Virus record (IMG/VR): IMGVR_UViG_3300020438_000030
Coordinates: 3,370 to 67,369 of that record
From: a virus
Direction: 5' to 3' (one strand)
Length of the DNA stretch: 64,000 nt
Under the pieces are notes generated by a model that made no database searches, was not told the DNA's origin, and was given only the letters and a program-made list of their open reading frames with translations. Of this stretch, positions 3,281 to 44,117 are shown piece by piece. The position numbers were made by a program, and so were the translations under genes. Positions within the stretch are counted from its first letter, which is position 1; each line of letters begins with the position of its first letter.

Positions 3281-3368
3281 GGGAGTGTGGCGGAATTGGT
3301 AGACGCATCAGACTTAAAATCTGTGGACTGTTACAGTCGTGCGAGTTCAAGTCTCGCCACTCCTACCA
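3281..3368 (+). tRNA. trnL: tRNA-Leu(UAA)
   Basis: Acceptor stem GGGAGTG/CACTCCT, D-loop GGAATTGGTAGAC, anticodon loop CT-TAA-AA, long variable arm, T-loop GTTCAAGTC, encoded CCA. Confidence 0.95.
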
Positions 3369-3402
3369 AACACTTAGTATTCATTATTAATTCTATTTTT
3401 CA

Positions 3403-26852: not shown

Positions 26853-27584
26853 GTGTCTACTCTTATCACTAATCTTCCTCCTTTAAAGGTATGGGTTAGG
26901 AAAGAATATCTTCGTGATCTAAGAGACGGCTTTGGTGAATATGTTTTAGGGTACTGGACATCTGTAAAGTCTTTACCTGGCAGAGTTTTTTATTTTGAAA
27001 CTTTCTTGCCAAGTTATGGTGCTCTTTATGACAAGCTTCCTATCTCAGCTTTTTTATCTTGGGATTCTGATAGTCCTGAAGCACCTGTAGCGCCATCTCC
27101 TGATCTTCCTTTAGAAGAGTTGCAATTCTGGAATTGTTTTAGTCATGACATTACCACGTTGGAAAAAAATCTTACCTACACAATGGGTTGGGAAATCAGA
27201 ACCAAAACCCACGGGTCTATCCCTGGTGAATACTTGTTTACTATTGACAGTTTTAACGGCGACCGTTCTAGGGCTGACATTTCTTTTGCAGAAACGCCCG
27301 ACGAACACAAATCCTTCAACATCATTGCGTTGCCAAATGGTCAAATTGCAGCGTATCCAAACAACAGATGCCGTCTTACTGATCCTTCTTTGTCCCCAGA
27401 AGAACTCAAACGGCCCGACTTCCTTGTTTCTACACGATACTTTCAAGTAGAAAGTCCTAATGCAAAATGGGGTCGTTTAGGAGAATCAGAAGAATATTTT
27501 TGGGAAACCAAAACAGAAAAAACTTTAGTTGCTTTTACAGCTAATAAAGATAGTTTTGATGAACAACAAGACTTTGATAGGTAG
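26853..27584 (+). CDS. conserved hypothetical phage protein
   Basis: 243 aa, GTG start; VRKEYL, GALYDKLPISAF, WNCFS, GEYLFTID, GQIAAYPNNR. Confidence 0.8.
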   Translation: MSTLITNLPPLKVWVRKEYLRDLRDGFGEYVLGYWTSVKSLPGRVFYFETFLPSYGALYDKLPISAFLSWDSDSPEAPVAPSPDLPLEELQFWNCFSHDITTLEKNLTYTMGWEIRTKTHGSIPGEYLFTIDSFNGDRSRADISFAETPDEHKSFNIIALPNGQIAAYPNNRCRLTDPSLSPEELKRPDFLVSTRYFQVESPNAKWGRLGESEEYFWETKTEKTLVAFTANKDSFDEQQDFDR

Positions 27585-27610
27585 AATATAGAAGTTGAAT
27601 CTACTTTGTT

Positions 27611-27757
27611 ATGCAAGATCTTTTAAGTAGCCCTATTACTTGGATTCTTATTGCTGCTGCTTCTGAAATTATTGCTTTATCTCCTTTGAAAGATAACAGC
27701 ATTATTCAAGTTGTTTTAAAAGCAGTTCTTAAAATTAAACCATCTGTAAAAAAGTAG
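27611..27757 (+). CDS. small membrane protein, holin-like (48 aa); candidate -1 frameshift extends it to 27924
   Basis: MQDLLSSPITWILIAAASEIIALSPLKDNSIIQVVLKAVLKIKPSVKK; ends in A_AAA_AAG_TAG. Confidence 0.7.
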   Translation: MQDLLSSPITWILIAAASEIIALSPLKDNSIIQVVLKAVLKIKPSVKK

Positions 27758-27920
27758 AAGGCATCACTCCTGATGACGCAGTGTTTATTGCACAGTGGTC
27801 ATTAAGGAGTGACAAAAAAAGAATTAAAGATGCACTTAGACGTCGTAGAAATATGGCATTAACAAGTCATCGTATTGATGAAGCCATACGTAAATATAAA
27901 GAAGATACAAACTGGGACGA

Positions 27921-28076
27921 TTAATCATCTAAAGCTTGAAACCAAAAGGTAACGCCTCCATTATCTTCTACATATTTTCTAGTTTTATATGCTTCATCTT
28001 TTTCCATTGTTTTGCAATGTCTTTCTTCTCCTAGTTCCCAACAAATATTGACACGAATAGGTTTATTTGATTTCAT
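27921..28076 (-). CDS. hypothetical protein (51 aa)
   Basis: MKSNKPIRVNICWELG...GGVTFWFQALDD; below the track cutoff. Confidence 0.55.
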   Translation of the reverse strand: MKSNKPIRVNICWELGEERHCKTMEKDEAYKTRKYVEDNGGVTFWFQALDD

Positions 28077-28224
28077 TCTCTAGTTGCATTAGTTTAGCCG
28101 TAGCTAGCGCATTTACTGCTGTCCAAGCTGTTTGTCCAGATACACGCTCTTGATCGCAAAAGTATTCAATAGAATCTTCTAATAATTCTACTAGTTCTTG
28201 TTTTGCAGCATAAGTAAGGATCAT
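28063..28224 (-). CDS. hypothetical cyanophage protein
   Basis: MILTYAAKQELVELLEDSIEYFCDQERVSG. Confidence 0.6.
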   Translation of the reverse strand: MILTYAAKQELVELLEDSIEYFCDQERVSGQTAWTAVNALATAKLMQLENEIK

Positions 28225-28302
28225 GAGTACATAGCCAGTAATAGTAATATTGAAGCACAAATTCCCCAAAAACCGAGGAATGATATTGCTATCAAAGCAC
28301 CT

Positions 28303-29013
28303 TCAGTGTCTGTTGAAAACTTTCTTGCACGTTTCCCATTTTGTATCACGATCTTTTTTTCCGTTCCAGCCTCCGTTGATTCTGTAACAACAGGCATCAA
28401 ATCCTTGTCCAAGACAAATACCTAACAAATCATTATCTTTAATCCATGTTAGTGCAGAACGAAAAGGATATTGTTCAGCAACATAATCACATCCGCGTTC
28501 CACGATAAGTGGATCATGTAATTCAGCGGCCAGACGTGTGTAATTAAATTTTCCTGTCAGCATTAGCACACCGGCTCCTTTATATTTAGGTCCGTCATTT
28601 GGACCATTGCCTAAATCAGAACGGTTATTGTATGCAGTGCCATCTGCAATTTCTTTCATCCAACGAAAGTTTCCTGTTTCATGCATAAGATTTGCAATCA
28701 ACATGCACATTGCATCTGTGTGTTGATCAAACTTTGTAAGCATTAACAATTTATTAAAGTCACCACAAAAAGTTTTATCAAATTTATTTGCTGCCCAACC
28801 AGTTAGTTGTTGCATTATTTCTGGTGTGATGATTTCATCAGTAGGATTAGCTGGACCTGCACGATACAGGTCCGCAAATTCATCTAATTGATCATCAGTT
28901 AGAACTGATTCAAGCCAGTTCCAAGCAGCTAATTGATGTGACTCTTCTTTGTAATACTTAGCTGCTTTGCTCAGATTGATTGTCACTGGTTTCTGCTTCT
29001 GAAGTGGGCTCAT
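28303..29013 (-). CDS. GH19 (chitinase-fold) endolysin
   Basis: HETGNFRWMKE, DLGN, YKGAGVLMLTGKFNY, RINGGWNG; ATG at 29013 preferred. Confidence 0.85.
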   Translation of the reverse strand: MSPLQKQKPVTINLSKAAKYYKEESHQLAAWNWLESVLTDDQLDEFADLYRAGPANPTDEIITPEIMQQLTGWAANKFDKTFCGDFNKLLMLTKFDQHTDAMCMLIANLMHETGNFRWMKEIADGTAYNNRSDLGNGPNDGPKYKGAGVLMLTGKFNYTRLAAELHDPLIVERGCDYVAEQYPFRSALTWIKDNDLLGICLGQGFDACCYRINGGWNGKKDRDTKWETCKKVFNRH

Positions 29014-29152
29014 CTTCTGGATCAAAGTTAAGATCTTCCAGAAGTTCTCCAATAAGCCTACCAGAAAATGCAACAAGATTTTGATCTCCTGTAGAACGAG
29101 CAGCACCAAAAGAATTAATGGCTGATACTAATTCAGATTTTTTGCAGGCCAT
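28958..29152 (-). CDS. hypothetical protein
   Basis: 64-aa ORF between tail fibre and lysin genes. Confidence 0.6.
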   Translation of the reverse strand: MACKKSELVSAINSFGAARSTGDQNLVAFSGRLIGELLEDLNFDPEDEPTSEAETSDNQSEQSS

Positions 29153-43463: not shown

Positions 43464-44117
43464 TTATTTTTGGAATTCAAAAATAAAACGCAAATCCTCT
43501 TCCGATAAATCAAAATCACCACTATAGGTAACATTAAATTTGTTAGCAAATTCTGACAAAATATAAGGATTGATTTCTGTTTCAAGCTGCCTAATAGCAG
43601 CAACTTGTTCTGGGGAAGCTGAATAATTTCTAAAAGCTTTTAACAATAAATTTCCAGGTAAATTTTCTAAATCTAAAAATAAACAAGCTTCTTGTCTTCT
43701 TCTGTCTAATAAACCACCAATCACTTCGTGTTCTTCATTAAAAATCCATTTACCAAACTCTTGAGCTGCTTGTGCATAGTTTTCATTTTCACACAAATCA
43801 ATGATAGGACTGTACAAAAAAGAATCCCAACCAATTGAATGAATAAATGAAATTAATCCTTGTTTCATATCAAGATCAATTTCAAGATTTAATTTATCAA
43901 TTTCTTCCGCAATAACATTTACTTCGTAAAGCAAATACTCTAATGCTTTTTCTTTGGTACAACAATGCCCTTGCTTAACTTGAGAACCATCTGGATAAAA
44001 TTGTGTCCCATATCCAAAAGTATATGGATCGCTTCCAGTAACGGGATCAGGGTAAGCTTTTTCGTTAAAACCTTCAAAAGTTTTAATTATAGAAATAGCA
44101 TCTTGATAAAGATACAT
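43464..44117 (-). CDS. GH24 phage lysozyme
   Basis: IKTFEGFNEKAYPDP...TFGYG (E-x8-D catalytic pair), GGLLDRRRQE. Confidence 0.85.
   Translation of the reverse strand: MYLYQDAISIIKTFEGFNEKAYPDPVTGSDPYTFGYGTQFYPDGSQVKQGHCCTKEKALEYLLYEVNVIAEEIDKLNLEIDLDMKQGLISFIHSIGWDSFLYSPIIDLCENENYAQAAQEFGKWIFNEEHEVIGGLLDRRRQEACLFLDLENLPGNLLLKAFRNYSASPEQVAAIRQLETEINPYILSEFANKFNVTYSGDFDLSEEDLRFIFEFQK

Follow-up and report, generated by a model that had tools for sequence, protein, structure and literature searches.

The stretch of viral DNA considered here (the window) comprises 64,000 nucleotides (nt) and corresponds to positions 3,370 to 67,369 of the IMG/VR virus record IMGVR_UViG_3300020438_000030, which is 67,369 nt long and estimated to be 86% complete. 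It comes from a phage genome of 38% G+C with genes for DNA polymerase, primase, thymidylate synthase, the major head protein, the large terminase and several tail fibres. A rightward gene block ends with two overlapping open reading frames (ORFs), ORF1 and ORF2, opposite a leftward block of structural and lysin genes. A preliminary description, made from the letters of the window alone, had proposed that these two frames are joined by a programmed -1 frameshift at a slippery heptamer, A_AAA_AAG, to give one product of 48 amino acids (aa) and another of about 104 aa, possibly a holin/antiholin pair. The elements of the junction are the following.

27611..27757, + strand: ORF1, 48 aa, the 0-frame product (PHROG 22542)
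27748..27754, + strand: slippery heptamer A_AAA_AAG, formed by the final base of a Val codon and two Lys codons
27755..27757, + strand: 0-frame stop codon TAG, immediately 3' of the heptamer, which terminates the short product
27754..27924, + strand: ORF2 in the -1 frame, 56 codons and TAA, recognised by family alignments and -1-frame selection
27764..27812, + strand: long bulged hairpin of 20 pairs, found by folding, a candidate frameshift stimulator
27764..27784, 27785..27789 and 27790..27812, + strand: 5' arm, loop and 3' arm of this hairpin

Conservation of the junction between ORF1 and ORF2

ORF1 consists of a short acidic N-terminus, one hydrophobic helix, a turn, a basic amphipathic helix and a Lys-Lys end. 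It matches phrog_22542, a family of unknown function, with an expect value (E) of 1.2e-19, and residues W11, I12, A15, A16, S18, E19, N29, S30 and K43 are invariant in 49 sequences. Its last codons are GTA AAA AAG, followed by TAG, so that A_AAA_AAG at 27748-27754 stands in the X_XXY_YYZ phase, as had been described. Read from G27754, the -1 frame begins VEGITPDD (P0001) and is open to the TAA at 27922-27924; its first canonical start is the GTG at 27781 and its first ATG lies at 27853. The earlier statements that this frame stays open for 56 codons without an early ATG and fills the gap up to the next gene also hold, the latter because a minus-strand ORF (27921-28076) abuts the ORF2 stop.

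Taken by itself, the window speaks against giving much weight to this arrangement. Its 326 ORFs of at least 40 aa, counted in six frames with spurious ORFs included, contain 221 in-phase X_XXY_YYZ heptamers, and A_AAA_AAG is in phase eight times. A -1 frame reaching at least 30 codons beyond the 0-frame stop follows 27 of the heptamers in the window, mostly in spurious ORFs that lie over real genes. The combination of an in-phase heptamer with a long -1 frame is common in the window alone and could be due to chance, and the case for a frameshift therefore rests on comparison.

A tblastn search of GenBank phages with ORF1 returned ten records that represent seven phages: the siphoviruses S-CBS1 and S-CBS3, S-EIVl, the T7-like podoviruses WH11-B, 7B11-B and S-B28, and a Mediterranean fosmid genome. 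In the phage collection searched with tblastn, matches to ORF1 were confined to Synechococcus phages and one fosmid, and ORF2 used alone as the query found only two chance-level matches in Vibrio phages (E = 7). A profile scan of IMG/VR yielded at least 408 relatives, the best 80 of which make up the first set; to these were added 13 loci of the clade of the window, 80 loci around a natural fusion (from two further scans) and eight from prokaryote genome bins. The latter eight, contigs of metagenome-assembled genomes, carry assorted taxonomic labels and are probably binned phage DNA. The resulting 186 records (the window and 185 loci) were anchored by tblastn and dereplicated over 340 nt at the ORF1 stop, which left 151 distinct junctions, and membership in the ORF2 family was decided with a hidden Markov model built from 46 -1 ORFs. 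Four classes of junction were considered.

137 of 151: heptamer in phase, 0-6 nt ahead of the ORF1 stop, and an ORF2 of the family
6 of 151: heptamer with a short or divergent -1 ORF, most of them still with the terminal (A/S)PW
8 of 151: neither heptamer nor ORF2
0 of 151: ORF2 of the family without the heptamer

An in-phase heptamer is thus found at the equivalent place in 143 of the 151 distinct homologous junctions, and the -1 frame is open for at least 50 codons in 141 of them, as against two for the +1 frame. The co-occurrence of heptamer and ORF2 gives p 5.4e-10 in a Fisher test, a value uncorrected for shared ancestry. Wherever there is a heptamer (143 junctions), the principal one is closely followed by a stop codon, at a distance of 0 nt (32 junctions), 3 nt (110) or 6 nt (1). 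The six cultured phages (S-CBS1, S-CBS3, S-EIVl, WH11-B, 7B11-B and S-B28) all have the heptamer and the -1 ORF; the fosmid genome has neither. Judged from these comparisons, the heptamer and the -1 frame are kept in homologues to an extent that is far beyond chance.

The principal heptamers are all canonical, namely A_AAA_AAG (131), G_GGA_AAG (6), A_AAA_AAC (3), G_GGA_AAA (1), A_AAG_GGT (1) and A_AAA_AAA (1), and many junctions of the first set have a second, overlapping heptamer such as A_AAG_GGC. The codon 5' of Lys-Lys can be GCA, GGA, GTA, CCA, AAA, CAA, TCA, GAA or CTA, that is, nine codons for eight amino acids. It is invariably NNA, compared with A at 19% of third positions in the long ORFs of the same loci. 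Likewise, A_AAA_AAR is in phase in 62 of 69 ORF1 tails compared with 14 of 100 X-Lys-Lys sites in neighbouring long ORFs, and where ORF1 ends in Gly-Lys-Arg, G_GGA_AAG is used, the variant found in the S-EIVl-type members. These frequencies indicate that the heptamer is held at the nucleotide level, beyond what the protein sequence requires.

The motif that characterises the ORF2 family begins two to five residues past the slip and reads approximately I-P-x-D-G-x-W-L-W-R-F-S-T-R-S, with the form T-P-D-D-A-V-F-I-A-Q-W-S-L-R-S in the clade of the window. It is followed by a basic helix and, in most clades, by a proline-rich stretch and a C-terminal (A/S)PW. The selection acting just past the slip was evaluated in 14 sequences of this clade (12 distinct), over the nine codons that precede the GTG at 27781. 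The columns that vary there number 4/1/9 by codon position. Among the codon pairs that differ, the ratio of synonymous to nonsynonymous ones is 219:53 if the codons are read in frame -1, 57:189 for frame 0 and 4:242 for frame +1. For the junction codons of S-CBS1-like members the ratio is 1227:296 in the -1 frame versus 245:1356 in the 0 frame. Both sets of counts point to purifying selection on these codons as read in the -1 frame, beginning at the junction itself.

The length of ORF2 is plastic but stays in frame: two loci (L074 and L039) have internal in-frame deletions with both ends kept, and the C-terminal motif occurs three times in P0014. One metagenomic contig of run X10 seems, with low confidence, to skip 27792-27919 (126 nt) of ORF2, with a 27-nt side that is too weak to use.

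Natural fusions and losses are also found. ORF1 and ORF2 form a single-frame protein in P0003 (138 aa), P0004 (125 aa), P0009, P0010 (131 aa) and P0015 (148 aa). Some of these could be homopolymer miscalls, and P0015 reads as if it had one extra A; those of P0003 and P0004 differ outside the A-run, and in P0004, which has four member sequences on a 63-kb contig, the heptamer is replaced. Among the loci that have neither heptamer nor ORF2, L035 encodes its Lys-Lys as AAG AAA, and its lysin gene starts from a separate ATG directly after ORF1; the gene that comes next in L041 is a different one, and its ATG overlaps the stop. ORF2 is also missing in L051/52, L034, L032, L179, L134 and L100, and L110, which lacks both elements, was too short and was left out of the 151 junctions. 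From the fusions and the loci devoid of ORF2 it follows that short-only and long-only forms both occur in nature. As far as sequences can show, the two parts are modular, and most phages keep an arrangement able to give both forms. Taken together, the comparison strongly supports the core of the original proposal, a -1 frameshift at A_AAA_AAG with products of 48 and 104 aa, and it is very probable that this programmed frameshift is real.

The downstream hairpin and other explanations

What weighs against one recoded gene is given in this section next to the explanations that it favours, and applies in part to the counts themselves, since the sequences counted are phylogenetically non-independent.

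In the 60 nt past the stop the minimum-energy fold is one bulged hairpin (27764-27812, -24.2 kcal/mol), which begins 9 nt past the heptamer. Its energy is the lowest of 750 sixty-nt windows between 20000 and 35000, with z from -4.2 to -4.9, and six relatives of the clade in the first set fold alike (spacer 7-9 nt, z from -2.5 to -5.3). An alignment of 13 clade sequences has 84% of its cells paired, compared with 27-55% when the 3' partners are slid. The covariation within the clade is modest, with changes on both sides in two of the 20 pairs and a score reached by one of 500 shuffles. Divergent members of the clade re-pair in a shifted register, for which one arm has changed synonymously and the other by switches between Ser and Leu codons. 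Because the register of the stem shifts between subgroups, RNAalifold recovers little from the clade alignment (only ten pairs), and the structure was judged from folds of each sequence and from pair counts on a named structure.

The preliminary description had seen in this region an H-type pseudoknot. Its two components exist, the local stem CATCA/TGATG (27762-27775, -3.6 kcal/mol) and the complementarity of CTCC (27767-27770) with GGAG (27806-27809), but the latter pair inside the stem of the long hairpin, and this nested hairpin of 20 pairs and the local stem are mutually exclusive. The pseudoknot, for which the 4-nt loop CTCC would have to pair completely, was rejected in favour of the long hairpin stem. 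The conservation looked for in homologues is not that of a pseudoknot either: relatives with TGACG do not retain the local stem, and the long hairpin is conserved in the window clade only. Downstream structure is not a general property of the family, with a mean z of -1.2 for the 60 nt past the heptamer and z < -2 in only 17 of 69 loci; a second type of hairpin is present in L008/L010/L014. The hairpin is thus specific to the window clade, and the element common to all is the stop codon after the heptamer.

For the hairpin alone, another role has been considered, that of a terminator or RNA-stability element belonging to the convergent lysin operon on the minus strand. Read in their own direction, the genes of that strand come to an end (27921) shortly before the hairpin, and a consensus scan calls a terminator-like site on the same strand at 27779-27761, overlapping the local stem, whose T-rich tail is the complement of the heptamer region; furthermore, most of the other clades in which the heptamer is retained have no comparable hairpin. 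The scan is nevertheless weak (two sites versus 0.8 expected), and the minus-strand T-run lies 9 nt past the base of the long stem, which as a rule is too far for a canonical intrinsic terminator. The hairpin is also situated inside conserved coding sequence, with the spacing that is expected of a -1 stimulator, and this other role is unlikely.

The 104-aa protein could also arise by transcriptional slippage, if RNA polymerase added one A and the message were then translated normally. Slippage of the polymerase is known at runs of eight to nine A, and a run of six is short for it to be efficient. The window does have a run of six A, and the extra A with which P0015 reads would fit the same process. 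In L049, L053, L057, L073 and L075 the slip site contains an A-run of 8-9 bases, and in such members polymerase slippage could give the same product. Apart from the short run in the window, this explanation has to contend with the six junctions with G_GGA_AAG and the one with G_GGA_AAA, which are not homopolymers and are classic ribosomal slip sites; the absence of a homopolymer run from G_GGA_AAG favours ribosomal over polymerase slippage. In addition, the strict codon phase of the heptamer matters to the ribosome and not to the polymerase, and the position of the hairpin, 9 nt downstream, suits a stimulator that acts on ribosomes. The contigs of two DNA runs are free of indel variants, and those from RNA libraries cover only 27474-27699 and 28099-28300, with the heptamer outside them. 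Slippage of the polymerase is, on this evidence, improbable.

Another way of looking at ORF2 is to consider it a separate gene, translated by coupling or re-initiation at the GTG at 27781 or at a non-canonical codon by the stop, in which case the heptamer would be a by-product of Lys-Lys. GenBank annotates ORF2 separately in S-CBS1 (from TTG), S-CBS3 (ATG) and S-EIVl (GTG), and two proteins, P0016 and P0029, were called with a start at the junction. A GTG overlaps the TGA stop in four clade members, and a CTG does so in many others, so that coupled re-initiation is possible there. Elsewhere in public protein sets the start given to ORF2 is arbitrary, or the protein has been falsely lengthened at its N-terminus by a long stretch of the -1 frame (P0018, P0021, P0028 and P0077); gene callers clearly have difficulty with it. 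The distribution of starts does not suit a separate gene: in 69 loci of the family, the first ATG, GTG or TTG of the -1 frame lies a median of 21 codons past the heptamer, five loci have no start codon at all, and 21 have no ATG. The conserved motif begins right past the heptamer, and in 57 of the 69 loci the first start lies only after the first conserved Trp. Independent translation from the GTG at 27781, which the preliminary description had named as the competing possibility, is contradicted by the -1-frame selection on the nine codons upstream of it and by the replacement of this GTG with GTC in L005/L095. Nor would a by-product of Lys-Lys be expected to show an NNA codon in every case, to be substituted by G_GGA_AAG in Gly-Lys tails, or to disappear wherever ORF2 is lost; the natural fusions point in the same direction. 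A separate ORF2 is accordingly very unlikely.

Finally, a broken gene or an assembly error, that is, a single ORF with a frameshift mutation or a homopolymer miscall, has a negligible probability: A-runs are indel-prone and some database proteins are in-frame fusions, but the arrangement recurs in six cultured phages and, over many studies, in 143 of the 151 distinct junctions, with varied heptamers and stops, and independent contigs from two other metagenome studies span the junction without an indel (X8, 27689-28062, identical to the window; X10, 27479-27947, with three substitutions, two of which give ORF2 residues of relatives, while the third is silent when read in the -1 frame).

The best explanation of the whole, and a probable one, is that ORF1 and ORF2 are one recoded gene with products of 48 and 104 aa. 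Most ribosomes would terminate at the end of ORF1, on the TAG at 27755, which gives a single-pass membrane protein of 48 aa. A fraction of them would slip back one base on A_AAA_AAG through the tandem re-pairing of two Lys tRNAs, bypass the stop and continue in the -1 frame, giving a protein of 104 aa with the same membrane anchor and a basic helical tail. The stop next to the heptamer and, in this clade, the 20-bp hairpin 9 nt downstream probably make the ribosome pause and raise the rate of slipping. The frameshift would set a fixed ratio of isoforms, both of which would take part in the membrane step of lysis, with the extra domain in the cytoplasm. The anatomy of the junction, its conservation, the coding selection and the fusions can be read from the sequences; the ribosomal nature of the slip and its stimulation by the hairpin are what we infer.

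Lysis context and predicted function

The junction is surrounded by the following elements.

27560..27587, + strand: TGAACA-16-TAGAAT, 5' of ORF1, promoter-like but no more than a weak match to the consensus
27921..28076, - strand: convergent ORF of 51 aa that abuts the ORF2 stop, function unknown
28221..28412, - strand: ORF of 63 aa with a hydrophobic helix at its C-terminus; in another frame, it overlaps the endolysin gene at the 3' end of the latter
28303..29109, - strand: endolysin-like gene, GH19/chitinase-like by PHROG (phrog_181 endolysin, E 2.3e-24)

The endolysin-like gene is convergent with ORF2 and lies 379 nt from its stop, which, together with its PHROG endolysin/chitinase matches, bears out the lysin that had been placed about 400 bp away; it has no Pfam match at E 0.01. 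In 53 of 74 loci the cassette is followed by an endolysin ORF, whose best match is to one of four different PHROG lysin families (phrog_181, 10051, 28234 and 7). In the T7-like members the ORF1 gene is located between the tail-fibre region and the small terminase, the position that holin gene 17.5 occupies in T7.

The ORF1 protein itself has the build of a small holin, with a hydrophobic helix, an invariant Ser-Glu and a basic tail. The residues flanking the helix have a mean charge of -1.4 on its N-terminal and +4.0 on its C-terminal side, from which an N-out, C-in topology is predicted by the positive-inside rule, so that the ORF2 domain would be cytoplasmic. The AlphaFold model of the fusion P0004 contains helices at 10-25, 32-45 and 52-96 and a disordered tail, with low confidence (predicted local distance difference test, pLDDT, 62.9; predicted template modelling score, pTM, 0.25). 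An oligomer prediction with four copies of ORF1 gave a score of 0.01, which is neither for nor against binding.

A pair of inner and outer spanins (i-spanin/o-spanin) fits poorly, given that the C-terminus is predicted to be cytoplasmic and that ORF2 lacks Cys in 67 of 67 sequences. A candidate spanin partner, in the form of a lipobox-like ORF on the same strand, within the cassette or at most 300 nt past it, was found in only 5 of 69 loci and is not conserved.

A function in lysis has to be weighed against several facts. The neighbour of the cassette is not a lysin in 21 of 74 loci, where it is an HNH endonuclease, an integrase or an unknown gene. Searches of Pfam, PHROGs, NCBIfam, PDB sequences and the ESM Atlas matched neither ORF1 nor ORF2 to a holin or to any other annotated family; the two PHROGs matched (22542 and 15106) have no assigned function, and ORF2 falls into no family. 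Moreover, the window clade has a second small transmembrane ORF by the lysin (28221-28412), which could be the holin proper. This 63-aa ORF has no PHROG match, is kept in 14 loci of the clade and is equally conserved there, and may be the holin of the clade or some other lysis membrane protein. With these facts taken into account, the gene context makes a lysis role of ORF1/ORF2 somewhat more probable than not. That the two products are a holin/antiholin-like pair, the short one holin-like and the long one modulating it, is plausible in view of the neighbourhood and the features of the protein, and is proposed only tentatively. The frameshift would then fix the ratio of the bare membrane anchor to the form with a cytoplasmic helical domain and would tune the membrane step of lysis.

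A protein of 81 aa with an N-terminal transmembrane helix and a coiled coil precedes ORF1 in S-CBS1, S-CBS3 and WH11-B. Members of this family of about 81 aa (phrog_26178/12220) are next to ORF1 in L001 (1220-1465), L002 (1251-1493) and L004 (1263-1508), downstream of it in L041 and fused to it in frame in P0007, and the window has no copy beside ORF1. The family has a weak match to a PHROG labelled hemolysin (E 0.0024).

Concerning the rest of the window, the 51-aa ORF at 27921-28076 is kept in the window clade (tblastn identity of 50-92%, 22 loci), and the promoter scan gave three promoter-like sites versus 4.0 expected from shuffles, which is not significant by itself. Directly upstream of ORF1, the gene at 26853-27584 (+) matches phrog_3704, labelled ferredoxin, with E 5e-88. 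Its DNA relatives are called 'transcriptional regulator' (Sf-FS3, Sf-CH8) and 'phosphoribosylaminoimidazole synthetase' (S-BM3), so the public names of this conserved cyanophage protein are mutually inconsistent; a PurM-labelled gene lies two genes upstream of ORF1 in S-EIVl. In the structural block, beside an ORF of 1156 aa, a second lysozyme-like gene (43467-44117, - strand; phrog_7 endolysin, E 5e-22) may encode a virion-associated lysin and not a lysis endolysin. The sole tRNA gene found in the window is a tRNA-Leu (anticodon TAA) at 3281-3368 (+), and a tRNA-Lys that could bear on the slippage at Lys codons is not among its tRNA genes. Some carriers of the cassette are probably temperate, because an integrase gene adjoins it in three loci (L053, L059 and L075).

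Relation to known systems and meaning for cyanophages

It is well known that programmed -1 frameshifts occur in tailed phages in the genes of tail chaperones, capsid proteins and clamp loaders. In dnaX of E. coli, tandem Lys-tRNA slippage at A_AAA_AAG, stimulated by a downstream stem-loop, leads to two products, tau and gamma, in a set ratio. ORF1/ORF2 shares with dnaX the heptamer and, as proposed, the tandem slip of Lys-tRNA, the stem-loop stimulator and the ratio of two products. The two differ in the class of gene and in the outcome, as the shifted frame of dnaX stops almost at once and gives the shorter product, whereas here the shift would bypass a stop and add at least 56 residues. Closer in outcome are the frameshifts of lambda G/GT and other tail assembly chaperones, where ribosomes slip by -1 shortly before a short ORF ends and thereby append a C-terminal domain for which there is no separate start; this arrangement is likewise kept across very divergent phages. 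The G_GGA_AAG of the S-EIVl-type members is the heptamer of lambda G/GT. Those frameshifts, however, serve tail morphogenesis and give soluble products, while ORF1/ORF2 encodes a small membrane protein beside lysis genes. In gene 10A/10B of T7, a -1 shift in the last codons also gives a minor, C-terminally extended isoform, although of a structural capsid protein and at a different slip site.

As for lysis, the dual-start holins S105/S107 of lambda and S68/S71 of phage 21 are similar in that they produce two membrane isoforms with a shared transmembrane part, and the ratio of holin to antiholin isoforms is thought to set the timing of lysis. The isoforms of those holins differ by a few N-terminal residues and arise by alternative initiation; here the difference would be a C-terminal domain of 56-113 residues and would come from frameshifting, and the holin activity is putative. 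A link of ribosomal frameshifting to phage lysis exists in MS2 as well, where the expression of the lysis gene depends on frameshifting in the coat gene (Kastelein 1982, as cited in PMC10885494). In that RNA phage, error frameshifts lead to early termination and to re-initiation at a separate lysis gene, without a fusion.

The mechanism as such is that of an ordinary prokaryotic -1 site, with the heptamer of dnaX or lambda G/GT, then a stop and a hairpin. The novelty here lies in the class of gene, in the spread of the site over sipho-, podo- and other cyanophages, and in its absence from annotations. In the literature searched in full text, which does not cover the genome papers of S-CBS1/S-CBS3, S-EIVl and S-B28, no frameshift is described in a holin or a cyanophage lysis gene, and the only functional studies of cyanophage holins concern the freshwater phages PaV-LD and MaMV-DC. 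The terms 'holin', 'cyanophage' and 'Synechococcus' are absent from the searchable text of the PRFect paper (PMC10885494), and the dnaX frameshift site is mentioned in a preprint (bioRxiv 10.1101/2025.10.02.679949). In GenBank, the proposed recoded gene is unannotated or split in all six records of cultured phages: ORF1 is unannotated in S-EIVl (KJ410740) and S-B28 (MK016662), and ORF2 in the podoviruses S-B28, 7B11-B (PV261922) and WH11-B (PV261923), in the last of which the -1 ORF overlaps the annotated start of the small terminase by about 58 nt.

If the frameshift is real, the annotation of hundreds of cyanophage genomes would be corrected, and a conserved frameshift in a membrane protein of the lysis module would be a new use of the mechanism. 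It is conceivable, although doubtful at this stage, that a recoding event widespread in marine and freshwater cyanophages sets the ratio of short to long forms of a membrane protein in the lysis module, as the frameshift counterpart of the dual-start holin/antiholin switch. Since slipping on A_AAA_AAG depends on the state of Lys-tRNA and the ribosome, such a gene could tie the timing of lysis to the translational condition of the infected cyanobacterium. The control of lysis in marine cyanophages is almost uncharacterised, and the recoded gene offers a handle on it in the cultured phages S-CBS1, S-CBS3, S-B28, WH11-B and 7B11-B, which grow on Synechococcus.

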